Shown here piece by piece: positions 4,123 through 62,033 of a stretch of 64,000 nt of DNA. The position numbers and the translations under genes are program-made. Under the pieces are notes generated by a model that was given only the letters and a program-made list of their open reading frames with translations, was not told the DNA's origin and did no database searches. The DNA comes from Bacteroidia bacterium. GTDB lineage: Bacteria > Bacteroidota > Bacteroidia > 2-12-FULL-35-15. The stretch's first letter is position 1. Every line of letters starts with the position of its first letter. The stretch covers positions 36,906 through 100,905 of the forward strand of contig JAVHPE010000095.1 of assembly GCA_036170475.1 (NCBI GenBank). The letters run 5' to 3'.

Positions 4123-5988
4123 TTAATACGCCAAATATTGTTCATACAAAGTTTGCAAATAGGCTTTAGCCTGAGTCAAAACAGTATCATTTAAGGTTGT
4201 TTGCGTTTTCGGTTGTAATTCCTGCACTTTTTTTGTATTAAACGAATACACAATGTTTTGTTGTGGTGAAATCCAGCCTAAGGCATTTTCATTTGAATAA
4301 TAAGCAAATCCTTTTACATCTTCTCTAAAAACATTTTTGCTCCATACAAAATTGCTGTGAGGTAATTTTAAAGCACCTAAAATGATAGCTGGTATGTCAT
4401 TTTGATTAGTTATTTTATCGAAAACTTTTCCGCGTAAATTATCAACAAGAGCTCCACCGGTTATCATTGCAGCAATTCTGTGACCTTCCGGGAAATCCAA
4501 ATTTCTGTTCATTGGCAGATGATGACCATGATCTGCGACTAAAACAAACAAGGTGTTTTTATACCAGGGTTGTTTTTTTGCTTCAGTAAAATAATTATAT
4601 AAACAATAATCGGTATAATAGGCTGCCTTTTTAAAACGTTCCTGCTCTTCGCCACCATTAAAAGGTGTCTGCATAGTTACTTCAAATGGCTCGTGTGTGC
4701 TCAACGTTAAAACAATTGAAAAGAAAGGTTGCTTTTCATCTTGCAATCCATCGAGTTGTTTTAAAAAAACATATTCGTCATGTGCTCCCCATTTACTGTT
4801 CAATTGGCTTTTATCGAAATTATTTTTATCGATTATTTTTCCGAATTGTGTATTTAAAAGATAGGATTTCATATTTGCAAATTCTATTTCCCCTCCGTAA
4901 TAAAATGACGATTGATAACCTTGTTTCCTTAACTCAATATTCAGTGAGGGCAGCTGTTCGGATTTGCTTGGGGTAGTAATAATTGAATTATTTGGTTGGG
5001 AAGGGAAACCGCTTAATATTGATACCAACCCTTGTTCTGTCCTGAATCCGCTGCTGTACATTTGAGTAAACAACAATCCTTCCTTGCTTAATTCGTCAAA
5101 ATGCGGTGTAACATTATTTTCGCCACCCAACTCTTTTATTATATCAGCTGTCCAACTTTCCAGGACGATAAAGACAATATTAGGTTTTTTGCTTTTTGAT
5201 AGAAGTTGTGTTTTATCGAAAGAAGTCGGGAACAAGTCAGCGGTAATGCTTTTTGCTTTTTTTCTATCCATAAACAGATAGGGATTTTTTTTGTCATTCG
5301 CCTCAGCAAAACTATGTGCTAAAAACCAGATATTATTAGTTGCAATATGATTATTTATTTGCAGGGTAGAATAATAAGCACTACTCTCATTAATAGGTGC
5401 AAGCTGGAAACCACCTCTGTAACCAACAATTAAAAGACCCGGTATTAGTAGTATCTGAATAATTTTTACTTTTTTATTTTCAATGGGATAGGAAAAATTT
5501 GTGATGAATTTGAGATAAAATTTTATTTCAAAATAAATAAAAATACCACAAATACAAAATAAAAGCAAAACCGTCCATACCGAGATAAATGAAAGAATTT
5601 CTTTGGGATATAATAAATAATTAAAAGCTCTTGCGCTTAGTAAAGTTCCCCACTCTCCATACATTTTTAAATTAGCAATACTAAGTATTGACACCATAAC
5701 CATGCAGGTTATATTAAAAATAAGGTTGATGCGATGAATAAATCTATGTTTATAAAACTGCTGAAAAGCCCATAATAAAAAGGGAATAGTAATGGCAGAG
5801 CAGGCGGTAGAAAAATCAAGTGGCAAAGCATAAAAAAAACTTAAAACCGTTTCTGAATGTTGTCCATCTGGAATTTTAATATGATGATAAATAATGAATA
5901 CTACTCTGAAAAAAGCAAAGAGCAACATCCAGAAAATTATGAGTCTGATTAAGTAATGTATTTTTAAAAAAAATATTTTTTTTATCAT
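4123..5988 (-). CDS. LTA synthase / sulfatase-family membrane protein (alkaline phosphatase superfamily)
   Basis: 621 aa. Five or more N-terminal TM helices, then a sulfatase-like domain with LVADHGHH and FIVLESW... motifs. Confidence 0.8.
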   Translation of the reverse strand: MIKKIFFLKIHYLIRLIIFWMLLFAFFRVVFIIYHHIKIPDGQHSETVLSFFYALPLDFSTACSAITIPFLLWAFQQFYKHRFIHRINLIFNITCMVMVSILSIANLKMYGEWGTLLSARAFNYLLYPKEILSFISVWTVLLLFCICGIFIYFEIKFYLKFITNFSYPIENKKVKIIQILLIPGLLIVGYRGGFQLAPINESSAYYSTLQINNHIATNNIWFLAHSFAEANDKKNPYLFMDRKKAKSITADLFPTSFDKTQLLSKSKKPNIVFIVLESWTADIIKELGGENNVTPHFDELSKEGLLFTQMYSSGFRTEQGLVSILSGFPSQPNNSIITTPSKSEQLPSLNIELRKQGYQSSFYYGGEIEFANMKSYLLNTQFGKIIDKNNFDKSQLNSKWGAHDEYVFLKQLDGLQDEKQPFFSIVLTLSTHEPFEVTMQTPFNGGEEQERFKKAAYYTDYCLYNYFTEAKKQPWYKNTLFVLVADHGHHLPMNRNLDFPEGHRIAAMITGGALVDNLRGKVFDKITNQNDIPAIILGALKLPHSNFVWSKNVFREDVKGFAYYSNENALGWISPQQNIVYSFNTKKVQELQPKTQTTLNDTVLTQAKAYLQTLYEQYLAY

Positions 5989-6761
5989 TTAAGATACAGT
6001 TGTCCTGTCCCTTTTTTAGTTTCCTGAACTGTTACAGGATTTCCGTAACAATAAACATCACCAATATAATCGATCAGACATGTTAAATTAATTGTATTAA
6101 CAGTACATATACCGGTAGTGAAAGTATGAATCCTGGTAATATTAGTTTGTAAGTCCTGGCAATTTAAAAATGCAGTGCCTCCAATATCGCAATTGTGTTC
6201 AAATGTATAGCCGGATAAAGTTAAATCGCCTGAGCCATGCATGTGCGAGGTTACTTTTGAGTTATTCACGACTAATTCAATGTTCCCTGAATTTTTTGTT
6301 TGTACGTCAAACATATCAGTAGTAATCGTATTCAACCCTTTAATGTTGCCGGTTCCATTAGAAGTAATAAATTTTATTACCGGCATTTTAATATACACAT
6401 TTAAAGGTTTTTTATAACTACGAGTCCAGTTACAGCGGTTCTTATTTCTAATAAATAAAGTTCCATCCGTTACTACTGTTTCAACAAGTGGAACTATATT
6501 TTCTCCTGCTTCCACTTTTACTTCAAAGGTTGAATCCTGTGAAATAAACACGTTCAAATTATCTTCAACAAAAAACTTGTCAAAACCATTTATTGCGCGT
6601 GTTTCGGTTATAATCGTACCTGTTCTCTTAATACAATCACACCTGTTTTCTTTTTTGCAGGAAGAAACAAGAACAATTAACAAAAATGCTATACTGATTT
6701 TACTGTATTTTATTTTTTTCATTTTGGTACTATTTAAAAAAAAATATTGAAATTCTCCCAA
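5985..6761 (-). CDS. Lipoprotein, DUF2807/GIN-domain (putative auto-transporter adhesin head) family
   Basis: 258 aa. Lipobox LVSSC. Repetitive beta-solenoid-like sequence. Paralogous to the CDS at 41036..41782. Overlaps the upstream gene by 4 nt. Confidence 0.6.
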   Translation of the reverse strand: MGEFQYFFLNSTKMKKIKYSKISIAFLLIVLVSSCKKENRCDCIKRTGTIITETRAINGFDKFFVEDNLNVFISQDSTFEVKVEAGENIVPLVETVVTDGTLFIRNKNRCNWTRSYKKPLNVYIKMPVIKFITSNGTGNIKGLNTITTDMFDVQTKNSGNIELVVNNSKVTSHMHGSGDLTLSGYTFEHNCDIGGTAFLNCQDLQTNITRIHTFTTGICTVNTINLTCLIDYIGDVYCYGNPVTVQETKKGTGQLYLK

Positions 6762-6769
6762 ATAATATA

Positions 6770-6818
6770 CTCAATCTCAATCTCACATCTTATATCTCAT
6801 ATCTCATATCTCATATCT
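6770..6818. repeat. Heptanucleotide tandem repeat (CTCAAT x2 then ATCTCAT x3-4) in the promoter region of the DUF2807 lipoprotein gene
   Basis: Read directly: ctcaatctcaatctcacatcttatatctcatatctcatatctcatatct. Confidence 0.8.
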
Positions 6819-7926
6819 AAAACTGATACCCTAAGCCCCATTCAAAATAATCGGCTTTAGCCCAATGTGTAAGAAGTGTAAAATTTGCGATAAGGTGTTT
6901 TGTAACCAAATATCTTAACCCAACACGATGAAAAAATATTCCATTATAGGCTTGTTTTTTATACACATAAATACCAAAATCAACAGGCAACGAAAGTCTG
7001 TTCATATTAAAAGAATAACTAATTTTTACCCCGGACTGAGCAATATCGGTAATTTTATCCGTGACTATGGAATCATTTGCCCATACTTGTTTGGTAGCAT
7101 TGTTATACGCAATTTCAATACCACCACCTAATTTGTTTTTATAATTTAATGTTCGGTATAAATTTGCCTGAATTCCGTATGCAAAATATTCAGGCCCCCC
7201 TGGATTTTCAAGTTCTTTAATCCCAAAAACACCAATTACAGAAGGTTGCCAAATTTTTTTCGCGGGATAAATCGTATCCTTTTTGTATACGCAATTTTTA
7301 TTACCAAAAGCGTACCCTAAGCCCAAATTAACAGTAGCCATGTTTAAGCCTAAGTTGGGTGTACTCATTGCCGCATTAGAAGCGTGTGTTAAGCCAACAC
7401 CTGCATCCAATCTCCATCCTTTTGAAATCATTATAGCTGAACTCAACCGGAAGTTAACAAAGCCATTAAAATGAGAACCAATGACTCCATTTTGATGATT
7501 TTCGATTCTATCAAAATCCTTCGTTAGGTAGGCCAATCCAACTCCAATCCGAAAATTCAATCGGGCTTTCCGATAAAGTTTATTTAAACGAATATTTGTA
7601 TATGGGTAAAAAGCCTCCAGATTGCCCAGTTGTTGAGGATTCGCCAGATACATGTGCAAAAAGCAAACGCCAATTTCAGGATATTTGTGGATTTGCTGCC
7701 ATGTTTTAGTGCCATCCGTACGAAAAATATAATTTACCTCTGCGCCATAAATATGCCCCTTAATAACATTCGCCATATTATTTCGATGACTAATGATAAA
7801 ACCATAATGCCCTTGTCCGGATAGTAAAAAATCATGTCCCGGCATATTTTGAGCCATTGATGAAGCCGGCAATATCCATATAACTAACACTATTAATATC
7901 CTAAGCAGCTTACTCTGTTTAAACAT
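6817..7926 (-). CDS. Outer-membrane beta-barrel protein, acyloxyacyl hydrolase / PagL-like (lipid A deacylase family)
   Basis: 369 aa with a signal peptide. Contains the GVGLTHASNA (H-x-S-N) motif typical of PagL-family hydrolases. C-terminal aromatic residue (..GLGYQF). Confidence 0.5.
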   Translation of the reverse strand: MFKQSKLLRILIVLVIWILPASSMAQNMPGHDFLLSGQGHYGFIISHRNNMANVIKGHIYGAEVNYIFRTDGTKTWQQIHKYPEIGVCFLHMYLANPQQLGNLEAFYPYTNIRLNKLYRKARLNFRIGVGLAYLTKDFDRIENHQNGVIGSHFNGFVNFRLSSAIMISKGWRLDAGVGLTHASNAAMSTPNLGLNMATVNLGLGYAFGNKNCVYKKDTIYPAKKIWQPSVIGVFGIKELENPGGPEYFAYGIQANLYRTLNYKNKLGGGIEIAYNNATKQVWANDSIVTDKITDIAQSGVKISYSFNMNRLSLPVDFGIYVYKKQAYNGIFFHRVGLRYLVTKHLIANFTLLTHWAKADYFEWGLGYQF

Positions 7927-16101: not shown

Positions 16102-17049
16102 TTAAAAACTTATTAATTCAACATCAAAAACCAATGGTGAAAAAGGAGGAATAGGACCTGCACCTTGCTCTCCATATCCTATAGAGGAAGGAATAATTAA
16201 TTGCGCTTTTGCGCCTGCACTCATTAAAGAAATACCCTCATCCCAACCTGGAATAACCTGCCCTTGCCCTAAAGGAAAATCAATTGGTGTATAAGTTCTT
16301 TCTTTATTATAGATACCTGCTTGTTTTGCAACTGCTTCATCACTGGTATCAAAAACACTTCCATCCAATAAGCGTCCTGTATAATTTACTTTTACCTTAC
16401 TTCCTTTAGTTGGTTTAGATCCTTTCCCTTTTGTTTTTTCGATATAATATAATCCGCTTGCAGTAGGTTTTGCAGTAATTTTATTAGTTTCTAAATATTT
16501 TGCAAAAGCTTTAGGTTCTTCATTTTTACGAAGTTCGATCATAGCTTTTTGCTCTTCCATTTTCTGACTGCGTTCTTTGTCTGCCACTTCCTTTGGTGTA
16601 ATTTTTTCAAGTTTTACTTCAAAATTTAGCATCGTTCCTTTTTGGATATAAGGAGGAAGAGTTTTAGTTCTGAAAGTTTTCAGATAAACGGAATCAGCAC
16701 TGATCATAAAGCTGGCGCTATCACCAACAGACATCATTGCCAATGCATCTTCGAAACTACCTTTAAATGTTGATTTACCTAAAGGGAACTCAATAAAATT
16801 AGTACCATTCGGGTTCTTGTTTTTTGAATCAAATAAAACAGAATCTTTGCTGTTTTTATATGCCAAAGATAATTTAACAATATCGCCTTCTTTAGGTTTA
16901 ACTCCCTTTGACTCCTGTTTAAAAAACTTAGCATATACACCGGTTTCGGTCTTTTCATAACCGGCGTATGGTGATTTATTACATGCAGTAACTACTAATA
17001 CAGCGCCAATAGCTGCAAACGCGACTTTTTTAGAAAATTGTTTTTTCAT
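16102..17049 (-). CDS. FKBP-type peptidyl-prolyl isomerase (FkpA-like), tandem duplicate of 15083..16075
   Basis: 315 aa. Collinear and highly similar to the upstream paralog along its full length. Confidence 0.85.
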   Translation of the reverse strand: MKKQFSKKVAFAAIGAVLVVTACNKSPYAGYEKTETGVYAKFFKQESKGVKPKEGDIVKLSLAYKNSKDSVLFDSKNKNPNGTNFIEFPLGKSTFKGSFEDALAMMSVGDSASFMISADSVYLKTFRTKTLPPYIQKGTMLNFEVKLEKITPKEVADKERSQKMEEQKAMIELRKNEEPKAFAKYLETNKITAKPTASGLYYIEKTKGKGSKPTKGSKVKVNYTGRLLDGSVFDTSDEAVAKQAGIYNKERTYTPIDFPLGQGQVIPGWDEGISLMSAGAKAQLIIPSSIGYGEQGAGPIPPFSPLVFDVELISF

Positions 17050-17121
17050 TTTATTTTTGTGAATTTTATTTTTGTGACATTTATTACTAATAAATTTTTT
17101 TCAAGGTGCAAATATAGTATA

Positions 17122-17209
17122 GATTTGAGAATTGAGATGTGAGATTTGAGAAAAAACATTCTTTAATATGGAAAGCTATTTCACATTTCCCATCTCATAT
17201 CTCATATCT
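17122..17209. repeat. Inverted arrays of the same heptamer family (ATTTGAG-type on the left, ATCTCAT on the right) flanking a 40-nt spacer, upstream of an FKBP gene
   Basis: gatttgagaattgagatgtgagatttgag ...40 nt... catctcatatctcatatct. Confidence 0.75.
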
Positions 17210-36059: not shown

Positions 36060-36584
36060 TTACTCCTTCTCAGTATTTTCAAACTTCACAATATCCGCTG
36101 CAAAGTCCATAAAAAATTTATGAGCGGATGTAAACATAAAACGATTATCAGCTGTCTTTTCAATAATGTTCCTACGATTAAGCGTATTAATGAAGTTCTT
36201 GCGTGAGTCAGCATCCTTTAATTGTTTGTTTGATAAAATTAAATCAATATAGGATGAGTTAGTAAAATAATTTTCGATTTCTTCAATTTCAAATTCACTA
36301 AATTGAATGCGTTCTAAAAAATTTTTTCCATCTCGGTCAAGCTCATAGCTTAAAAGTGCAAAAAATATACAGATATCACGGGACAACATTTCATTGGATT
36401 CATCAGAAACCAGATAAACAAAATCCTGAGTGATTTTTAAATCATAGTTGAATGATGCTTTAAAAAAATAGGTGTACGATTGTTCGTTATCCTTCAGAAC
36501 TGCGTATGTACGCTCTTGTGGTAATATAAATTTACCACTCATTAAATCTTCTACAATTTGGCGATGATGATTAGGAAATTCCAT
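36060..36584 (-). CDS. Hypothetical helical protein, third gene of the SMC-like ATPase operon (size compatible with a MukE/JetB/ScpB-like partner)
   Basis: 174 aa. Overlaps the upstream gene by 14 nt. No motif recognised. Confidence 0.5.
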   Translation of the reverse strand: MEFPNHHRQIVEDLMSGKFILPQERTYAVLKDNEQSYTYFFKASFNYDLKITQDFVYLVSDESNEMLSRDICIFFALLSYELDRDGKNFLERIQFSEFEIEEIENYFTNSSYIDLILSNKQLKDADSRKNFINTLNRRNIIEKTADNRFMFTSAHKFFMDFAADIVKFENTEKE

Positions 36585-37764
36585 GTTTATTGATTGTTAT
36601 TTTAGGAACAGTTACTGTTAAATCGTTAATTTTTATTTTGTCGAATTCAGGCTTTTTACCAAAATCTCGCTCAATATCCTCATCAAAAGCCAACGTGGTA
36701 AGTGCAAAGAATTTTTCAATTTCTACTTTCTTATATTCTTCCTTTAGCGTTTTGTTACACCACTTGAAAAAATCACTTACCGGCAAATTAGATTTTAATT
36801 TATGAGTAAAAAATTCTTTATCAAAAATCCATTTTTCTTCCGTATTAATTTCTTCCTCAAAATAAACTGCAGGATCATTTTTAAATTGTTCAAAAATTTC
36901 TGAAGCGTTAAAGAAAGTATTGTTGGAATAAATATTTGTCCTCTTAGCTTCAAATAATTCAGGTACTTTTTGTTTATAAGGATTTTTCAGGAATGTTATC
37001 CAGCCAGTCAGAATAATTGATTCAGTGCGAATACGTTCTATTAGCGGCAGTAATTCATTGGTTAAAATTTTTGATTGTTTTAATAAATTATCATTCACTT
37101 GAATCAATTGAAAATAAAGTTTTTCAAATAAAACACGTGAATTTTCCTCATCGCAGTTCAAACGATATTTATTTGAAAACTCAGATATATCATATAATTT
37201 ATTAGTAATAGATGTGGTATGATTAATGTCCAGAATTTTGTTGAGTGGAATAATATATTCATCAATCCATCTTGAAGCACGGACAATCTTTTCGCGGTAA
37301 TCAATTTTCTTTACATTGGCTTTTAATTCACGCGTTTCATTCAACAAACTAATGGTATTTTTTTCTACCATCTCATAGAATGCCCTAATTTCATTGGACA
37401 ATTCAATTAAGCGTTGATTTAAAATTACTTTATCCCCTTTTATATTCTCTTTAATTTTACGAAATAATTCAGCGATTGAAACATGATATTTTTCAATTGT
37501 CTCAGGCAACATTGGCTTAAACTCACTTAAAATAAACTCAATCAGGTTATAATAAACAGTCCGTATTTCGTAATTATCATTAACCGCGCTTAATATTTTA
37601 TAGTCGATAAGCTGAGATTTAATATCACTATTGTGTTTAGAAGTAATTTGATTTAACGTTTCGAAAGTAATAACACCGGCTTTCGTTTGTGTTTCATACA
37701 ATTCATTGATAATATCAAAATACTCTAATAAAAAGCGCAGTATGGTTCTTGGTTCAGCTTTCAT
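36571..37764 (-). CDS. Hypothetical helical protein, second gene of the SMC-like ATPase operon (possible kleisin-like partner)
   Basis: 397 aa, all-helical. No motif recognised. Downstream of the ATPase after a 204-nt spacer carrying a palindromic element. Confidence 0.5.
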   Translation of the reverse strand: MKAEPRTILRFLLEYFDIINELYETQTKAGVITFETLNQITSKHNSDIKSQLIDYKILSAVNDNYEIRTVYYNLIEFILSEFKPMLPETIEKYHVSIAELFRKIKENIKGDKVILNQRLIELSNEIRAFYEMVEKNTISLLNETRELKANVKKIDYREKIVRASRWIDEYIIPLNKILDINHTTSITNKLYDISEFSNKYRLNCDEENSRVLFEKLYFQLIQVNDNLLKQSKILTNELLPLIERIRTESIILTGWITFLKNPYKQKVPELFEAKRTNIYSNNTFFNASEIFEQFKNDPAVYFEEEINTEEKWIFDKEFFTHKLKSNLPVSDFFKWCNKTLKEEYKKVEIEKFFALTTLAFDEDIERDFGKKPEFDKIKINDLTVTVPKITINKHGIS

Positions 37765-37803
37765 TTGAAAATTATTTCTTTGTTTAAAATTATAAATAAT
37801 CGT

Positions 37804-37966
37804 CTACCCTGGCAGGGTTTCAAACCCTGTAAGGGCTTATGGTCCAATATAAATTACGATTCCAATTAAATTACATAATTTTATTTTACTCCAAACAGCT
37901 TTGAATTACACTTTTATCCAAATGCCTAAACCCCTGACAGGGTTTGAAACCCTGTCAGGGGATAGT
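37804..37966. mobile_element. MITE-like element: two related perfect palindromes (core CAGGGTTTnAAACCCTG) forming ~30-bp terminal inverted repeats around an AT-rich ~95-nt core. It fills the intergenic gap inside the SMC-like operon.
   Basis: ctaccctggcagggtttcaaaccctgtaaggg ... cccctgacagggtttgaaaccctgtcagggg. Confidence 0.55.
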
Positions 37967-37968
37967 TA

Positions 37969-40656
37969 TTATTTACTTTTTATTGTTTTTGCAATTGGTT
38001 GAACAGCCCCATTTCTTTCAACGACAACAGCATTCTGTTTTTCATTGATATTTACTTTTCCATTTGATGGATAAATAAAATAATATTTATTAAACCCTTC
38101 AACTGCGTCAGGTGCAGCAAAAATAGGTAGGAAATTATGTTCCTTACAAAATTTCACTATCTCCGGACGGTTTTGTTTATCAATGGTTGCAACCTCGTCA
38201 ATAAACAACGCGATTTTATTGTGTTCATCCGCAACAGCTAAGCGATTGATAATGGACATAATCATTACCAAGCGAATCATTCGGTCGGTACCATCTGATT
38301 CAACCTGATTTGCAAGATCTACACGTTTATCGGTTCCTTTAATATGAAGTAATAATTCTATATTAAATAATTCATCAAAACTTACTTTTTTGCCACTGTC
38401 GAGGTAGGTATTTAATACTTTTAAATTTTCGGATTGGTCAAACTCAAAACTCATTTGCCCATTGAACTCCTGAATAGAGGCGATTTTTTTTAACTCGCCA
38501 ATGATGCGATCGTTATCCAACAATTCAATTTTCATTGATTCTATATTGGAGATACGCGTTTGCGAGAGTTTTTCGTTGAATTTTGTATAAACAAATTGTT
38601 TAAACTCTTCATAGCGTTTTAGCAAAGTGTAAGCAGGATTGGCAAATTGTGTTGAAATACTGGATAATAACCCATCGATGCTACGTTCTTTATCAGATAA
38701 ACAGGCTATTTCATCCTCCACAAAGTTTATAAACTGCTCAATGTCAGCGCTGTTATTGCGTAAACGATATTTTAAATTATCAAATATGGCATCTTTTTTT
38801 ACTTTTAATTCAATTCTGTCTTTTTGATGAATTGAAATTTTAGAAAAGATATAATCCAAATTATCATTTGTTTCGTATTCAGTAGGCACCAGATTAATAG
38901 CTTCCACTTCAATTTTTCGAGCTTTCAAATCTCTAACACGAACTTCCAGATTGCGTTTTTCTTCCTGCAATTTGTCAAACATAATTTGTTTTTGAGAAAT
39001 TTCTTTAACCAAGGAACTTAAAAGCTCTTCCAGTTCTTTCTTTTCCAACGTTAATGATCTAACATCATCCGTGATGGAACGAACCTGCTTTTCCAATGCA
39101 GGTTTGCTTTCAATCTGTTTCACTTTTTCTTTAATTAATTCAATTTCACTTAAAATCACTTTCAGTTTTGAATCAATTTTTTCTTTGTCAGCTACCGTTT
39201 TTAATAGCTCTTCCGTTTGTTTTTTCTCTAGCTGTAATCCTTTCAATTCATCTTTCAATTCTTTAACTGATTTGAATTCTTTCAGTGTGATTCCTTTAGT
39301 GATATCAATTTCGCCATCAAAAATCGCCAGTAGTTTTGCTGAAATTTTTTTGATTGGTTTTTTGATTTGTTTACTTGGCAAGCCTGTAACCTGTTCTGAA
39401 AGGACAGAATTAAGCAATTGCTTCACATCTTCGTTATCCGAAATTTTATGAATCAATAAATTGTTGTAATTATCAATTTGATTTTCGAGTGATGCGATTT
39501 GGTAATTTAATTTATCAATTCGCATTTCAAGTTGTTTACTTGATAATTTTTGAATCTCTATGGTAGTAAACCGTGTTTCAATGTCCTTACGATCTTTATC
39601 CAAATTGCGTAATGATTCTTTCAAGAAATCAACCGTTTCAAATTTAAGAATCTCATTCAATGCGGCTTGTTTTTCAACCAACAGATTGGTTTTGTTTTTT
39701 ATTTCGGCATTTTTTTCACCGATATAAGAAGCGTAATTTAATTCCTTAGGTTTTAATATCTCATTAATTTCGTTATGCACCGCGGCAATGTGTCTTCCTC
39801 TTTCGATAGAAGAAATTTCCAATTCAGGAATCGCGGAGGTGTAGGAATAATTAAAAGCGGAAATTAATTCACTAACGATTTTTGTTTTTGAATTATATAC
39901 TTTAACTAATTCGCGAAACTCAAGGAAATCGGTACGTACCGACTTAATACTTTTAATTTCCTCGTTAATACGCAATAAATCAGTAATATCTTTTTTGTTT
40001 TTTTGAGAGAAATTCAAACTTTCATTTTCACGATTATCAGCAATGATCAACGACTCTTTTAGCGTTTTATTTGTAATCAACTTGGAGTTGATTAAATAAC
40101 GATATACTTTTGAAAAATTATTACTCAAACCATCTGCTTTTACGGTATCTTCCAGCCATACCACAGCATTATTCTTTATTCCACGATGGTATACCAGATT
40201 AAAGACATCTGATTTAGTAGCAAATTTGCTATGTGCAATTCCTCTTTCAATAAGTTTTCCGATCACTTCATCAAAATTCAATAAGCGTTGATGTGTACCT
40301 TCGTTTTCAAAGAAATACTCTTCATCGTATTCACTGTCAATTTTATAGTATTCCAATTCGCCATCTGTATTTCTTTTCACAAGAATACAATAGTAGCCCA
40401 GCTTATTTATCTCGAATATTAAAAAACTTTTATTATGAGTAGGAAAGTAGTGATGGATAGTTTCTTTATCCCCTTTGCGTTGCCCGCTGAACGACATTTT
40501 TTGTCCGTCAACAACAAACAAAAAGTTCAAAGCATAAATCAAGGTACTTTTCCCGATGTTATTCGGTCCGACCAATTGCATTGAATCACAATTGTCTAGT
40601 TTCAATTCGGCTTTACCATAGCCTTTCGAGTTGATAAGGGAAATTCTTGTAAGCAT
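37969..40656 (-). CDS. SMC/MukB/JetC-like ABC ATPase (Rad50-type head halves separated by a long coiled coil)
   Basis: 895 aa. The N-terminal head (ISLINSKGYGK...LVGPNNIGKSTLIYALNFLF) carries a Walker A motif. About 400 aa of K/E/L-rich heptad coiled coil. The C-terminal head has Walker B (ALFIDEVATID) and a signature-like ESDGTDRM. Confidence 0.75.
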   Translation of the reverse strand: MLTRISLINSKGYGKAELKLDNCDSMQLVGPNNIGKSTLIYALNFLFVVDGQKMSFSGQRKGDKETIHHYFPTHNKSFLIFEINKLGYYCILVKRNTDGELEYYKIDSEYDEEYFFENEGTHQRLLNFDEVIGKLIERGIAHSKFATKSDVFNLVYHRGIKNNAVVWLEDTVKADGLSNNFSKVYRYLINSKLITNKTLKESLIIADNRENESLNFSQKNKKDITDLLRINEEIKSIKSVRTDFLEFRELVKVYNSKTKIVSELISAFNYSYTSAIPELEISSIERGRHIAAVHNEINEILKPKELNYASYIGEKNAEIKNKTNLLVEKQAALNEILKFETVDFLKESLRNLDKDRKDIETRFTTIEIQKLSSKQLEMRIDKLNYQIASLENQIDNYNNLLIHKISDNEDVKQLLNSVLSEQVTGLPSKQIKKPIKKISAKLLAIFDGEIDITKGITLKEFKSVKELKDELKGLQLEKKQTEELLKTVADKEKIDSKLKVILSEIELIKEKVKQIESKPALEKQVRSITDDVRSLTLEKKELEELLSSLVKEISQKQIMFDKLQEEKRNLEVRVRDLKARKIEVEAINLVPTEYETNDNLDYIFSKISIHQKDRIELKVKKDAIFDNLKYRLRNNSADIEQFINFVEDEIACLSDKERSIDGLLSSISTQFANPAYTLLKRYEEFKQFVYTKFNEKLSQTRISNIESMKIELLDNDRIIGELKKIASIQEFNGQMSFEFDQSENLKVLNTYLDSGKKVSFDELFNIELLLHIKGTDKRVDLANQVESDGTDRMIRLVMIMSIINRLAVADEHNKIALFIDEVATIDKQNRPEIVKFCKEHNFLPIFAAPDAVEGFNKYYFIYPSNGKVNINEKQNAVVVERNGAVQPIAKTIKSK

Positions 40657-40948: not shown

Positions 40949-41035
40949 GGCATGCCCAAAAATAATCCTGAATGGTGTAAATTATCTATATTTGTTTATA
41001 AGAAACTGTCAGTAAATTTATTAATATCACTAAAC

Positions 41036-41782
41036 ATGATTTCAAAATTGAGTAAAATAGCAGTGATTGCACTGTTCTTTGCGAGCTGCGATAATATGAC
41101 CATTTCAACCGGTGATGGTTCAAAGAAAATAACCGGTAACGGAAAAACCGTTTCTGAGTTGCGTGAAATAAAATCGTTCAATGCAATTTCAATAGATGGA
41201 GTTTTTAATGTTATTCTGGAGCAGGGAAGTAAAGAAAGTGCAAAAGTAGAAACCGATGAAAATATTTTACCAGTAATTATTACAGTTGTTGAAAACGATA
41301 CATTGAAGGTAAAAATGAAGGATAGCACTTCTGTCCACAAAATGACCAAATTGGATGTGTTTATAACCCTTGTATCAATTTCAAGTATAAAGACTGTTGG
41401 AGTAGGTAGTTTGAAAAGCACAAATACATTGCATTTAAAAGATCTTGATTTGAATTTTGAAGGTGTAGGTGCTACGGAAATAAACCTGGAAGCAGATAAA
41501 TTAACAGTCGAATCAAAAACCGTTGGTGCCTTATTATTATCGGGTCTTGTAAAAGAAACAACAATTAATCATAATGGTGTTGGGATAATACATGCCTTCG
41601 ACTTAAAATCAGAAAAACTAATACTACATACAAGTGGAGTTGGTGCCGCAGAAGTATTTGCATCGCAGGAACTGACGATTGACGCATCAGGCATAGGTGG
41701 CGTAGAATACAAAGGAGGAGCCACTATAAAAGAAATTAAAAATGATGGAATTGGAAAAGTTGTTTGTATGGATTGTAAATAA
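41036..41782 (+). CDS. Lipoprotein, DUF2807/GIN-domain family (paralog of 5985..6761)
   Basis: Lipobox LFFASC. Repetitive G-V-G beta-solenoid-like repeats. The ORF is open from 40952, but the signal peptide starts at Met 41036. Confidence 0.6.
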   Translation: MISKLSKIAVIALFFASCDNMTISTGDGSKKITGNGKTVSELREIKSFNAISIDGVFNVILEQGSKESAKVETDENILPVIITVVENDTLKVKMKDSTSVHKMTKLDVFITLVSISSIKTVGVGSLKSTNTLHLKDLDLNFEGVGATEINLEADKLTVESKTVGALLLSGLVKETTINHNGVGIIHAFDLKSEKLILHTSGVGAAEVFASQELTIDASGIGGVEYKGGATIKEIKNDGIGKVVCMDCK

Positions 41783-41791
41783 AGGAGAGTA

Positions 41792-42589
41792 TTACTTTAG
41801 CTCAACTTTTACCAAATAACTTCCCGCATTTTGCGCATTATAAACTTCTTCATAGATTGAAAGATATAATATTCCAGTATCATTAGAGATTCCTGAATAC
41901 TTTTCTCCTGCTCTTGTCATAACTCCATGTTCAGCAATTTTAAAAACTACATTTCCGTAGGTTGGATACGTGTAATTGTTTGTTGCGGAATCATCCACAG
42001 AAAGGGGAGCATAATCATAGGAAGAAGCGGTTGTAGATGTTCCTCCCACAGTTTTACCATCAGGAGTATATTTTGCACCTGATAAACTTGCAAGGACTAC
42101 TTGTCCATTTGCGGAAATAGAAAGTTTTTGTCCCTTTTTAACCATAATTCCTGTGTTTAACCATCCACCGGCAGTATTGCTACTAATATGTTTTGATCCA
42201 ATAAGTTTAAAAGCTGTTTGTCCGTCCGCAGTATTAAATATCTCTATACTTTCCATCTTTTCACCAGGAATAGTCAAGACACCATATTCTGTTTTTATTT
42301 CCAATGATTTAATATTTGTCTGACCGGCAATATTGTAGGTATAATTAATTTCAACAACATCAACTGTTTTTACGGTTTCTCCATCTTCCTGTTTTACTCC
42401 CATTTTTATACTTGATACATCCTTAACAGGAATATCCAGTTTCCCGTAATCAGTAATCAGATTTATTTTTGATAATGAGGCAGCGCCTAAAACGATATTA
42501 CCATCCTTTAAAATAATACGAAGTTGTACCTGAGAAAACAACAAGGGGGAAAGAAGGATTAAAAATCCGGTTAAACTTTTTCTGAGCAT
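41792..42589 (-). CDS. Secreted hypothetical protein
   Basis: 265 aa with a signal peptide (FLILLSPLLFSQ). An (ATGA)n SSR lies 18-63 nt upstream of its start. Confidence 0.5.
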   Translation of the reverse strand: MLRKSLTGFLILLSPLLFSQVQLRIILKDGNIVLGAASLSKINLITDYGKLDIPVKDVSSIKMGVKQEDGETVKTVDVVEINYTYNIAGQTNIKSLEIKTEYGVLTIPGEKMESIEIFNTADGQTAFKLIGSKHISSNTAGGWLNTGIMVKKGQKLSISANGQVVLASLSGAKYTPDGKTVGGTSTTASSYDYAPLSVDDSATNNYTYPTYGNVVFKIAEHGVMTRAGEKYSGISNDTGILYLSIYEEVYNAQNAGSYLVKVELK

Positions 42590-42606
42590 TAGCTTATGTT
42601 TTATTT

Positions 42607-42652
42607 ATGAATGAATGAATGAATGAATGAATGAATGAATGAATGAATGAAT
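42607..42652. repeat. (ATGA)~11 tetranucleotide microsatellite, 18-63 nt upstream of the start codon of the secreted-protein gene 41792..42589
   Basis: atgaatgaatgaatga... read directly. Confidence 0.9.
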
Positions 42653-42772
42653 AAATAAATGTTTGTTCGAACAAATTAAAACTAAAGAATGAAACCAGTC
42701 ACGCTAAAAATTAAATTCGGTAGTAAAAATATGAATAAGTTATTACCTTGAGAATTTTTTTTCAGACAGACA

Positions 42773-44113
42773 CTATTTATAGTCCACAGTAAAAATATCT
42801 TCAGCATAATGCTTAACTAAAACGGAGCCATCCGCATCCAATTCTTTAAGAGTTACTTGTTTCAATTGGTTAATCAAGTCACGGTTGTATGGAGTTTTTA
42901 CCTTAATATAATTGTCGGTAAAGCCATGCATAAAGCCATCTTTTTTATCCGCTTCGAATAATACTGTATGTGTTTCGCCTAAATGTTGTTCGTAAAAATA
43001 TCTCAGCTTTTTTGCGGAAAGAATACGTAACATTTTATTTCGTTTTTTACGGATAGCGACAGGAACAATATTTTTCAGATGAATGGCATCAGTATTATCT
43101 CTTTCGGAATAGGTAAAAACATGTAAATAAGAAATAGTTAATTCATTCAGGAAGTTATAAGTATCTATAAAATCTTCATCGCTTTCGCCCGGAAAACCAA
43201 CTATGACATCCACACCAATGCAGCACTGAGGCATTAATGTTTTAATTTTTGCAATCCGTTCGGAAAATAATTCACGCAAATAACGTCTGCGCATAGCCTT
43301 TAGCATCTTGTTACTTCCCGATTGTAATGGTATATGAAAATGCGGAACAAATCTTTTTGATTGTGCGACAAATTCAATAATTTCATCTTTCAATAAATTT
43401 GGCTCAATGGAAGAAATCCGGAAACGTTCAATACCTTTCACACTATCTAATTCTTTTACTAAATCAAAAAAAGTTTCTTTTTTATGATTACTTGTTTTAG
43501 ATTCGTTGTTACCAAAATCACCCAGATTAACCCCTGTAAGGACAATCTCTTTCATATTTTGTTTTGCAATATCGTTTGCATTTTTTATCGCGTTTTTAAT
43601 AGTATCGCTGCGACTATTGCCTCTGGCTAATGGAATAGTGCAAAATGAACAATTATAATCGCACCCATCCTGTACTTTCAGAAAAACACGTGTACGGTTA
43701 CCAATAGAGTATGAATCAACAAAAAAATTCGCGTTTTCAATTTCACAGCTATAAATTTCAGCTTTTGTTTTTTTTGTTAAATCATTTAAGTAATTAAGCA
43801 ATTTGAATTTCTCGGAAGCACCCAAAACTAAATCAACGCCATAAATATTAGCGATATCTTCAGGCTTTAATTGGGCGTAACATCCCACTATTACGATGTA
43901 TGCATCAGGAGAAATGCTCAATGCCGACTTTACGATTTGTTTACATTCCTTATCAGCATTGGCAGTAACAGTACATGTATTAATAACATATACATCCGGA
44001 GATTCCTTGAAATCAACCTTAAGGTAACCCTGTTCTTCAAACAAACGTGCAATGGTAGAGGTTTCGGAAAAATTTAACTTACAGCCAAGTGTATAGAAGG
44101 CTACTTTTTTCAT
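42773..44113 (-). CDS. mtaB: tRNA methylthiotransferase, MtaB-like (radical SAM, UPF0004 plus TRAM)
   Basis: 446 aa. The N-terminus MKKVAFYTLGCKLNFSETS resembles B. subtilis MtaB. Radical SAM CDYNCSFCTIP. Confidence 0.8.
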   Translation of the reverse strand: MKKVAFYTLGCKLNFSETSTIARLFEEQGYLKVDFKESPDVYVINTCTVTANADKECKQIVKSALSISPDAYIVIVGCYAQLKPEDIANIYGVDLVLGASEKFKLLNYLNDLTKKTKAEIYSCEIENANFFVDSYSIGNRTRVFLKVQDGCDYNCSFCTIPLARGNSRSDTIKNAIKNANDIAKQNMKEIVLTGVNLGDFGNNESKTSNHKKETFFDLVKELDSVKGIERFRISSIEPNLLKDEIIEFVAQSKRFVPHFHIPLQSGSNKMLKAMRRRYLRELFSERIAKIKTLMPQCCIGVDVIVGFPGESDEDFIDTYNFLNELTISYLHVFTYSERDNTDAIHLKNIVPVAIRKKRNKMLRILSAKKLRYFYEQHLGETHTVLFEADKKDGFMHGFTDNYIKVKTPYNRDLINQLKQVTLKELDADGSVLVKHYAEDIFTVDYK

Positions 44114-45373: not shown

Positions 45374-46345
45374 ATGACAACAGCAAGACATAACTGGACA
45401 GTTACAGAAATACTTGATATATATAATTCGCCTTTACTTGGATTAATTAATCGTGCACAGCAAATTCACCGTGAGTTTAATGATGCTGCTGAAGTTCAAG
45501 TAAGTTCGCTATTGTCAATAAAAACAGGTGGTTGCGTTGAAGATTGCAGTTATTGCTCTCAGGCAGCAAGGTATAATACCGATGTTGAAATACAAAAGTT
45601 AATGGAAGTAAGTCAGGTGTTATTAGCGGCTGACAGGGCAAAAGCAGGTGGCGCATCTCGTATATGTATGGGAGCAGCCTGGCGCGAAGTAAGAGATAAC
45701 AGCGATTTTGACCGGGTGCTGGAAATGGTAAAAGGCGTAAACGAAAAAGGAATAGAAGTGTGCTGCACCTTAGGAATGCTTACTGAAACACAAGCACAAA
45801 AGCTTGCAGATGCCGGGTTATATGCCTATAACCATAATCTGGATACATCAGAGGACAACTATAAAAAAATTATTACTACCCGCAGTTATAATGATCGATT
45901 AGATACAATTAAAAACGTACGTAAAGCTAAAATAACTGTTTGTTCCGGAGGTATTATCGGTTTAGGTGAAACCATTGAAGATCGTGTTAATATGCTGAAA
46001 ACATTATCATCTATGGAAATTCATCCTGAATCAGTTCCAATAAATGCGTTGGTTCCGGTTGCAGGCACTCCAATGGAAAACCAGCCACTTGTTCCTATCT
46101 GGGATATGGTGCGTATGATAGCCACCACACGTATTGTTATGCCTGAAACAGTAGTTCGGCTTTCAGCAGGCCGCACACAAATGAGTTTAGAAGGACAAGC
46201 CTTATGCTTTTTGGCTGGCGCTAATTCAATTTTTGCCGGAGATAAATTATTAACAACCCCTAATCCGGATTTTAATACGGATATGGAAATGTTTAAAACT
46301 TTCGGATTAACTCCAACTAAATCATCTAAACAAATTGAGAGTTAG
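45374..46345 (+). CDS. bioB: Biotin synthase
   Basis: 323 aa. Radical SAM motif [10 protein letters not shown] plus BioB-specific [2Fe-2S] region. Confidence 0.95.
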
Positions 46346-46387
46346 AAAGTTGGAGAGTTGGAGTTTGAAATAGTTGAAATCGCTTAA

Positions 46388-47572
46388 ATGATTCATTCAA
46401 AAAATAAAAAAATAAAAAAAACATCTATTGTTTTTCCCGCTGATAAATTTTTATCCGGTTCTCTTCACAAACGGATAGAACAAAGTTCGTTACGTAAATT
46501 AGTTATTAATAATCAGTTGATTGATTTTTGTAGTAACGACTATTTAGGTTTTGCCAGTAATAAAGAATTAATTGACTTTACCGAACTTGAGATCTCAAAT
46601 CTCAAATCTCAAATCTCAAATCTCTCCGGTTCAACCGGTTCTCGTTTATTAGCGGGCAATTCAGCTTATGCCGAAACATTAGAAAAAAAAACCGCAACAT
46701 TTCACCATGCAGAAGCTGGTTTAATTTATAATTCGGGTTATGATGCAAATGTGGGTTTATTCTCTGCCTTAGGGCAAACAGGGGATACTATCATTTATGA
46801 TGAATTGATACATGCCTCAGTGCATGATGGAATAAGATTATCATCAGCCTCCGCTTTTATGTTCAGGCACAATAACATTTTACATCTGGAAGAACGTCTG
46901 AAAATAGCAAAAGAGATTGTTTACGTTGTTGTTGAAAGCATTTATTCAATGGACGGAGATACGGCATCATTAAAAGAAATTGCTATACTCTGTAAAAAGC
47001 ACAATGCCAATTTAATTGTTGATGAGGCTCATGCAACAGGCATTACACTCAATAATGGCAAAGGAATTGTAAGCCAGTTGAATCTGGAACAGGATATTTT
47101 TGCCCGTATTCATACTTTTGGCAAAGCACTTGGATGCCATGGTGCTATCGTACTTGGAAGCGATTTGCTTCGTAATTTTCTGATCAACTTTTCCCGCTCT
47201 TTTATTTATACTACTGCCTTGCCGGTAAAAAGTCTTGTTGCTGTGAACCAAGCCTATCAATTACTTCAGAAGAGTGAAGACTTGATCAAACAACTTCATG
47301 AACTTATCCGATACTTTAAAAACCATCTTTCAGAAAATCCAAAAGCACAATTAATTGTAAGCAATAGTGCCATACAAAGTATCATTGTTACCGGAAATGA
47401 CAAGGTAAAAAAACTTGCTTCCATATTGCAACAAGGCGGGTATGATGTACGCCCTATTCTTAGTCCGACCGTTCCCAAAGGAAAAGAACGTTTACGTATT
47501 TGTATTCATGCTTTCAATACACAATCGCAAATTCAAGGCTTATGTGATTCTATTAACAAGCACTTTAAATAA
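46388..47572 (+). CDS. bioF: 8-amino-7-oxononanoate synthase
   Basis: 394 aa. Collinear with E. coli BioF (SNDYLGF, PLP-lysine region TFGKALG). Contains an in-frame heptanucleotide repeat at 46592-46624. Confidence 0.9.
   Translation: MIHSKNKKIKKTSIVFPADKFLSGSLHKRIEQSSLRKLVINNQLIDFCSNDYLGFASNKELIDFTELEISNLKSQISNLSGSTGSRLLAGNSAYAETLEKKTATFHHAEAGLIYNSGYDANVGLFSALGQTGDTIIYDELIHASVHDGIRLSSASAFMFRHNNILHLEERLKIAKEIVYVVVESIYSMDGDTASLKEIAILCKKHNANLIVDEAHATGITLNNGKGIVSQLNLEQDIFARIHTFGKALGCHGAIVLGSDLLRNFLINFSRSFIYTTALPVKSLVAVNQAYQLLQKSEDLIKQLHELIRYFKNHLSENPKAQLIVSNSAIQSIIVTGNDKVKKLASILQQGGYDVRPILSPTVPKGKERLRICIHAFNTQSQIQGLCDSINKHFK
46592..46624 (+). repeat. (ATCTCAA)x4 plus partial heptanucleotide repeat in-frame inside bioF
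   Basis: atctcaaatctcaaatctcaaatctcaaatctc, encoding ..EISNLKSQISNL.. Confidence 0.85.
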
Positions 47573-61840: not shown

Positions 61841-62033
61841 CTACGGAGAGTTACGGATATTTACGGACTGTGGCGTAGAAAAAAACGCAACGTAAAGAAC
61901 GGACATTTACGGAGAATAACGGGTATTTGCGAACTGTAACGCAGAAAAATGCAACTCAAAACACGGACATTTACGGAGAATAACGGATATTTACGGACTG
62001 TAACGTGGAAAGAAAAAGAAACAACTAACCGCC
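61841..62033. repeat. Three tandem ~64-nt direct repeats rich in TTACGGA/ACGGA words (iteron-like)
   Basis: The unit tacggagaataacgg(a/g)tattt(a/g)cg(g/a)actgtaacg + an A-rich ~20 nt tail occurs 3 times. Confidence 0.8.

Follow-up and report, generated by a model that had tools for sequence, protein, structure and literature searches.

A long, perfect tetranucleotide tract upstream of a gene for a predicted secreted LecA-like protein in a groundwater Bacteroidia bacterium

The repeat tract and its neighborhood

We analyzed a 64-kb stretch of DNA from a Bacteroidia bacterium, referred to below as the window, which has a GC content of 34% and whose proteins have their nearest relatives in metagenome-assembled genomes (MAGs) of uncultured Bacteroidia. 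At 42607..42652 the window carries a perfect tetranucleotide tract, which reads as 11 ATGA units followed by AT on the plus strand (46 nt, uninterrupted) and as AT(TCAT)11, or (TTCA)11 in another register, on the minus strand, the strand of the gene that it precedes. The start codon of that gene (41792..42589, minus strand; 265 aa) is an ATG at 42589..42587, in agreement with the closest relatives. The tract occupies -18 to -63 relative to this gene, and sequence, position and strand agree with the description given by the initial annotation, about eleven and a half perfect ATGA units over 46 nt. Unique sequence borders the tract on either side (TCGAACAAACATTTATTT and AAATAAAACATAAGCTAATG), and the order along the gene strand is TCGAACAAACATTTATTT-AT(TCAT)11-AAATAAAACATAAGCTA-ATG. 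Degenerate units adjoin the tract on its promoter-proximal side (42653..42661, minus strand; ATAAATAAA on the plus strand and TTTATTTAT on the gene strand) and are counted in the array called by Tandem Repeats Finder (TRF; 42607..42661, period 4, 13.8 copies, 96% matches, score 96), which exceeds the 11 perfect units because of two adjoining degenerate ATAA units.

The tract is far beyond chance. The 16-mer (ATGA)4 occurs eight times in the window, each time within the tract, compared with 0.01 occurrences expected from dinucleotide-preserving shuffles. No other perfect repeat with a unit of 2–8 nt exceeds 28 nt across the 64 kb, no further (TTCA)n copies were found elsewhere in the window, and a search of Rfam with the tract returned no match. 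In every bacterium where slippage has been measured, it is frequent at tracts in the range that includes 11 perfect tetranucleotide units (for example, De Bolle et al. 2000, cited in PMC11868660), and this tract, with 11 perfect units over 46 nt, is both uninterrupted and of a length at which slipped-strand mispairing is expected to be frequent; that it is so pure itself points to ongoing slippage. Judged by what is established for Haemophilus and Neisseria, the 11 perfect units make the tract a plausible slipped-strand substrate, as had been proposed for it. Outside contingency loci, such perfect 11-unit tetranucleotide tracts are, to our knowledge, extremely rare in the genomes of bacteria.

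The product of the gene downstream has a classical N-terminal signal peptide (MLRKSLTGFLILLSPLLFSQ), an N-terminal beta-rich domain and a C-terminal domain with a predicted PA-IL/LecA-like lectin fold. An AlphaFold (AF2) model built from 80 homologs reached a pLDDT of 86.7, and its nine best PDB matches were all PA-IL/LecA, PllA or EclA (E 1e-4 to 3e-3, target TM 0.68–0.77); an earlier, low-confidence model had given the same LecA-type match. At the level of sequence, no Pfam family scored above threshold for the 265-aa protein, seven of the 27 family members tested against PF07828 matched it weakly (best E 0.013), and profile matches to PllA and EclA were marginal (E 0.74 and 1.4, respectively). 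The family comprises more than 380 well-conserved proteins from Bacteroidota metagenomes. The signal peptide that had been noticed at the outset was thus recovered by prediction, together with a high-confidence LecA-like lectin fold, and we describe the product as secreted and LecA-like in its predicted fold, stopping short of calling it a demonstrated lectin. Signal peptide and modeled fold would place the product among the surface, secreted or modification functions, and it appears to fit the class of genes that carry such tracts.

Upstream of the lectin-like gene, across an intergenic gap of 183 nt, lies mtaB (42773..44113, minus strand), which encodes a MiaB/MtaB-like radical-SAM methylthiotransferase (UPF0004 and Radical_SAM); a Maf gene is the next beyond it. 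Downstream of the lectin-like gene, and convergent with it, is a gene for a DUF2807 'GIN-domain' putative adhesin (40952-41782, plus strand). This gene probably starts near 41036 and not at 40952: Logan calls a protein of 248 aa, and an exact -7 promoter box (TATATTTG, 40987..40994) falls inside the longer ORF. The divergent gap upstream of the DUF2807 gene holds a sub-threshold match to Flavo-1 (RF01705; 40866-40936, plus strand; 34.8 bits, below the gathering score of 42; E 9.6e-5). A three-gene operon on the minus strand (36060-40656) encodes an 895-aa ATPase (N-terminal P-loop, AAA_29), a 397-aa protein without a family and a 174-aa protein with an MksE domain; it looks like an MksBEF/Wadjet-like condensin module, and the PADLOC matches to it were weak (AriA, HEC-01A). 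Elsewhere in the window, a tandem repeat with a period of 64 nt (61842-62005; 2.5 copies, 82% matches) is rich in ACGGA/AACGC motifs.

Promoter candidate and leader

Bacteroidetes promoters combine a -7 box of the form TAnnTTTG with a weak -33 element (PMC6847099), and a variant of the box, TAnnTTGY, is motif SM5 of Flavobacterium psychrophilum (PMC9723704). An exact TAnnTTTG precedes roughly 10 of the 24 genes in the window whose upstream gaps are sizeable, so the canonical box is common here, not universal. Within the 183-nt gap, the only exact match to either form (TAnnTTTG, the sigma-A box, or TAnnTTGY) is TAATTTGT (42671..42678, minus strand), a TAnnTTGY (SM5) match located upstream of the tract. 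We treat it as a candidate and not a mapped promoter, because a random match to one of the two forms would be expected about one time in four in 183 AT-rich bases, as estimated from base composition. A scan of the gap for sigma-70 promoters and terminators on the gene strand returned no site; such a scan is uninformative for a Bacteroidia.

If the TAATTTGT box is taken to occupy -12..-5, transcription is predicted to start near 42666, yielding a leader of 77 nt in which the tract spans +15..+60. The predicted leader would measure 31 nt without the tract. The median leader in the Bacteroidetes phylum is 24–32 nt (PMC9723704), and a tract-less leader within this normal range fits the tract as an insertion. 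Orthologs bear on the same point: one of them (L083) has a TAATTTG-type box (TAATTTGC) about 45 nt from its ATG, and exact TAnnTTTG boxes are found 24–85 nt from the ATG in L005, L015/L114, L085 and L113. These box positions support, by sequence comparison, a promoter upstream of the tract. Co-transcription with mtaB is also possible, with read-through across the tract, because a terminator-like site was not predicted in the gap. The tract is probably transcribed in either case, from the gene's own promoter or by read-through from mtaB.

The 17-nt segment between tract and ATG (42590..42606, minus strand; AAATAAAACATAAGCTA on the gene strand) contains a TAA stop in each of the three frames and nothing like a -7 box. 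Within it, TAAATAAA is an 8-nt inverted copy of TTTATTTA, which lies beyond the other side of the tract. A translational frame switch was rejected on the strength of these stops, one for each frame, and the tract lies outside the ORF, whose called start agrees with the orthologs. A promoter spacer was also rejected, the tract measuring 46 nt compared with the ∼19–21 nt that separate the -33 and -7 elements. The tract does not fall between core promoter elements, a -7 box being absent from the 17 nt downstream of it, and it is not placed like the distal repeat of nadA, since only these 17 nt, without a promoter box, are left before the ATG. The initial annotation had suggested that gain or loss of units would either change the spacing of promoter elements or alter the 5′ UTR, and would thereby switch expression. 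The first of these suggestions is not supported, given both the length of the tract relative to the -33/-7 interval and the location of the sole exact -7 box upstream of it. The 5′ UTR placement is favored by motif prediction and by the orthologs; it would predict graded modulation and not ON/OFF switching, and the start accessibility obtained by folding is nearly flat across unit numbers. With the tract in the leader, slippage would shift leader length by 4 nt and leave reading frame and promoter geometry unaffected.

The predicted 77-nt leader contains a single G, and it folds no more stably than shuffled sequences (z = 0.29). Folding predictions over 0–25 units place the accessibility of the start region at 0.54 to 0.63, and between 10 and 13 units the accessibility around the start (-20..+20) changes by less than 0.02. 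We therefore rejected structural occlusion and a riboswitch-like mechanism, the fold being no better than shuffles and accessibility almost independent of unit number. Initiation in Bacteroidia is known to ignore the Shine–Dalgarno sequence, and it needs low structure and an upstream A-rich context (PMC6847099). A mechanical ORF of 26 aa with a TTG start (42594..42674, minus strand; MFEQTFIYSFIHSFIHSFIHSFINKT) runs across the tract, its stop falling 4 nt short of the ATG. It is probably not a gene, and because its TTG falls within the candidate -7 box, it would be limited to read-through transcripts.

Relatives, independent assemblies and other repeat arrays

A tetranucleotide repeat upstream of the homolog was found at none of the ∼97 loci compared, which came from JGI metagenomes, GTDB genomes, Logan and ENA. 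The nearest relatives among these loci were at 63%–67% identity, and the leaders of relatives at 57%–67% were ordinary. Profile scans of GTDB and JGI yielded 98 loci, whose identity did not exceed 66% and which lacked any tetranucleotide simple sequence repeat (SSR); a scan of GTDB genomes with the single protein found nothing, and the species itself was not found in the JGI and GTDB collections searched. Because the repeat is absent upstream of ∼97 homologous loci with ordinary leaders, the tract appears to have expanded recently and only in this lineage, within a leader that is otherwise ordinary. The only closer relative (P0002; ENA ERZ27297709), at 90% identity, keeps the synteny of mtaB, the lectin-like gene and the DUF2807 gene; its gap to mtaB measures 189 nt, and its start is called 15 nt further upstream.

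Two samples that encode an identical P0007 ortholog (L005 and L010) differ by a 15-nt leader indel (TAATAATTTAAAACA) located ∼20–35 nt upstream of the ATG. The indel lies between imperfect direct repeats and shows that leader length varies naturally in this family even where no SSR is present.

Perfect SSRs (at least four units and at least 16 nt) are scarce in the homologous loci, with two found in 421–428 kb. In a distant homolog (L018; 355 aa, JGI Ga0334722_10273882), arrays of AGAATTC x4.1 and TATTCTT x4.9 occupy positions 79-159, both inside the region coding for the signal peptide and in frame with the only available ATG. From their sequence, these arrays are a candidate translational SSR switch. 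L018 thus links SSRs independently to 5′ ends in this family, with small statistical weight: one of two SSRs falls in ∼3% of the surveyed sequence. Heptamer arrays ∼450–540 nt upstream in three further loci (L036, L039 and L074) were rejected as a family trait, a gene of 96–99 aa intervening.

Several intergenic heptanucleotide arrays are also present in the 64-kb window. A PagL-like gene (6817..7926, minus strand) and the gene for a second DUF2807 'GIN-domain' putative adhesin (5985..6761, minus strand) are separated by a gap that an array of ATATCTC x7.9 on the plus strand fills (6765-6818; minus-strand units GAGATAT/GAGATTG), and here too an SSR immediately precedes a gene for a putative surface protein. 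The gene for an FKBP-type isomerase (16102..17049, minus strand) has an exact -7 box (TATATTTG, 17109..17116) upstream of it, and right at this box end two opposed heptamer arrays in an inverted arrangement (17121-17209; GAGATAT x2.6 and TCTCAAA-like x4.4, minus strand). A perfect 33-nt array, ATCTCAA x4.7 (46592-46624), lies within the ORF of a BioF-like class I/II aminotransferase (46388..47572, plus strand), a housekeeping ORF in which slippage of a 7-nt unit would cause a frameshift, and an array of GAGAGTTG x3.4 is found at the 3′ end of bioB (46337-46363).

The tract is not an artifact of one MAG assembly. The same flanks, with at least seven units entered from both sides, were recovered in independent Logan assemblies of several SRR254905xx runs, and an identical gene with an identical upstream mtaB is present in six of them (SRR25490522, -527, -529, -531, -542 and -548). 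The Logan contigs (k = 31) all end inside the tract, ∼7 units in, because the repeat is longer than k in the k = 31 graph, and so they carry no length information. Exact-protein searches with the lectin-like gene and mtaB, used to look up alleles of other lengths, returned Logan k = 31 contigs only, and the exact count of 11 units is that of the window sequence alone. One contig tail (L014, SRR25490527), anchored in the unique left flank, reads (TTCA)5TTTA in place of further TTCA units near 42630 of the window; this end is probably an error tip, the alternative being an interrupted allele. A neighboring run of the series (SRR25490518) is a groundwater metagenome from PRJNA1001268 (PMC13172421), and judging from their adjacent accession numbers, the tract-bearing runs probably belong to the same project.

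Candidate explanations and known systems

Among known systems, the tract appears most like the 5′ UTR repeat of uspA2 in Moraxella catarrhalis, (AGAT)n, for which 6–23 copies and an expression peak at 18 are reported (Attia & Hansen 2006, as cited in PMC4679880). In both cases the unit is a tetranucleotide and the tract precedes the start codon of an exported or surface protein's gene, downstream of the transcription start, a predicted one in our case; the copy number here (11) is in the range seen there (6–23), and the expected outcome is graded, not ON/OFF. The two differ in unit (AGAU there, UUCA here), in phylogeny (Gammaproteobacteria compared with Bacteroidota) and in lifestyle (a human pathogen compared with a free-living groundwater organism), and the transcription start here is predicted from sequence.

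By this analogy, we tentatively favor a slippage-prone, uspA2-like leader repeat that would give graded expression of the lectin-like gene. Transcription would start near 42666, from the TAATTTGT box, and the mRNA would carry (UUCA)11 at +15..+60 in a leader of ∼77 nt that is nearly G-free and predicted to be unstructured; on an mtaB read-through transcript, the tract would be intercistronic RNA. Slippage during replication would add or remove 4-nt units, changing leader length in a heritable and reversible way, and the amount of lectin-like protein would vary in a graded manner (volume control), not ON/OFF. Conceivable effectors are mRNA stability, the loading of ribosomes or bS1 on the unstructured leader, and a bound factor. 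Graded expression is favored because the tract would sit in the leader, as in the uspA2 5′ UTR. Several points count against this reading: the -7 match has about a one-in-four chance of being random, and the gene might be co-transcribed with mtaB instead; folding shows no structural route for an effect of length; the heptanucleotide arrays of the window suggest that the genome may simply tolerate or generate non-coding SSRs; and contingency tracts of 1–4 nt are typical of host-adapted pathogens, whereas the present organism lives free in groundwater.

Nearly as likely as such a rheostat is a neutral microsatellite, an SSR that was seeded in the AT-rich leader and expanded by slippage, whose length may vary while expression is unaffected and selection is absent. 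The TTTA/TAAA-like units that flank the tract are a possible seed, no effect of unit number is predicted by folding, and the tract is conserved in none of the compared relatives. Other intergenic SSR arrays, in the window and in related Bacteroidia loci, lie upstream of unrelated genes; an ortholog with an identical protein tolerates the 15-nt leader indel between samples (L005 vs. L010); and an intergenic site is where a neutral SSR would survive anyway. Neutrality is harder to reconcile with the rarity that general knowledge assigns to perfect tetranucleotide tracts of 11 units outside contingency loci, with zero interruptions across 44 nt, with a location directly before a gene for a secreted lectin-like protein, and with the independent 5′-end SSRs of a second family member (L018).

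Alternatively, the presence of the repeat could matter and not its variation, with the G-free (UUCA)n acting as a fixed-length landing platform for bS1/30S or as an array for an RNA-binding regulator. The single G and predicted lack of structure of the 77-nt leader would suit this role, as would the dependence of Bacteroidia initiation on low structure and upstream A-rich context in place of Shine–Dalgarno pairing (PMC6847099), and direct repeats near start codons have been proposed as sites for post-transcriptional regulators (PMC4679880). That proposal concerns TAACTGA and other heptamer repeats found upstream of start codons in Beggiatoaceae, cyanobacteria and a few Bacteroidetes (PMC4679880). 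Our tract resembles them as a short forward direct repeat in a leader near the start codon, in a phylum included in their range and in a window that also has heptamer arrays; it differs in being a TTCA tetramer, not TAACTGA, at a single locus and not in a dispersed family. A fixed-length element is nevertheless quite improbable: the orthologs do without any such element, the region of interest for bS1 is -12 to -15, which the tract, with 17 nt between it and the ATG, does not reach, and the one (TTCA)n locus in the window gives no sign of a regulon.

We regard as highly improbable a DNA spacing switch, in which unit number would set a distance or helical phase, either as a hif-like promoter spacer or as a spacer to a nadA-like distal operator. 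This was the suggestion of the initial annotation, and it has a precedent in Neisseria meningitidis, where the (TAAA)n tract of nadA lies upstream of the core promoter between NadR operators and acts in this way (PMC2791445). As at nadA, an AT-rich tetranucleotide repeat stands upstream of an adhesin-type gene, and slippage would alter level and not frame; a step of 4 nt corresponds to ∼137 degrees of helical phase, and the tract, which is flanked by the 8-nt inverted repeat TTTATTTA/TAAATAAA, could have an operator to one side or the other. The geometry, however, is not that of nadA: with 17 nt between tract and ATG and no -7-like box among them, a core promoter cannot fit downstream, a tract of 46–55 nt cannot fit between -33 and -7 elements, and the sigma-70 scan had no match on the gene strand in the gap. 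Scarcely credible is a switch by coupling on the mtaB read-through transcript, in which a change in unit number would shift the frame of the 26-aa TTG ORF, move its stop and alter re-initiation: the ORF exists, the stops after the tract lie at differing distances in the three frames and a terminator-like site after mtaB was not predicted, but the gene's own transcript would lack the TTG, which falls within the candidate -7 box, chance alone is expected to produce stop codons where sequence is AT-rich, and the ORF is a mechanical reading frame.

The tetranucleotide loci of Haemophilus influenzae (lic1 with CAAT, mod with AGCC/AGTC; De Bolle et al. 2000, cited in PMC11868660) lie inside ORFs and act by frameshift, ON/OFF. 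Our tract shares with them a perfect tetranucleotide repeat long enough for high slippage rates, and differs in that three-frame stops separate it from the ATG. In Bacteroidota, phase variation has been documented essentially through invertases, as for the invertible promoters of Bacteroides (PMC11868660). The likeness there is one of phylum and of variable expression of surface or secreted functions; those systems invert DNA between inverted repeats, whereas the present locus has neither an invertase nor an invertible segment.

We conclude that this microsatellite is real, unusual in its length and purity, and plausibly placed for a regulatory role. Should it be neutral, it would amount to no more than a long repeat of a rare kind at which assemblies recurrently break. 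The fullest version of the favored reading, in which this groundwater Bacteroidia would use slippage in the leader as a heritable rheostat for a LecA-like lectin and the family would be a recurrent contingency target, as L018 may hint, is unlikely. Were it true, contingency regulation by SSRs would reach into environmental Bacteroidota, carrying a known principle modestly further, to a new phylum and lifestyle, and the locus would be a second, phylogenetically remote case of the rare tuning of expression by a tetranucleotide in the 5′ UTR. It would also offer a natural series of leader lengths for studying the influence of leader length and composition on initiation in a phylum without Shine–Dalgarno pairing, and it would point to the members of a conserved, uncharacterized family of secreted LecA-like lectins as ecologically variable surface factors.
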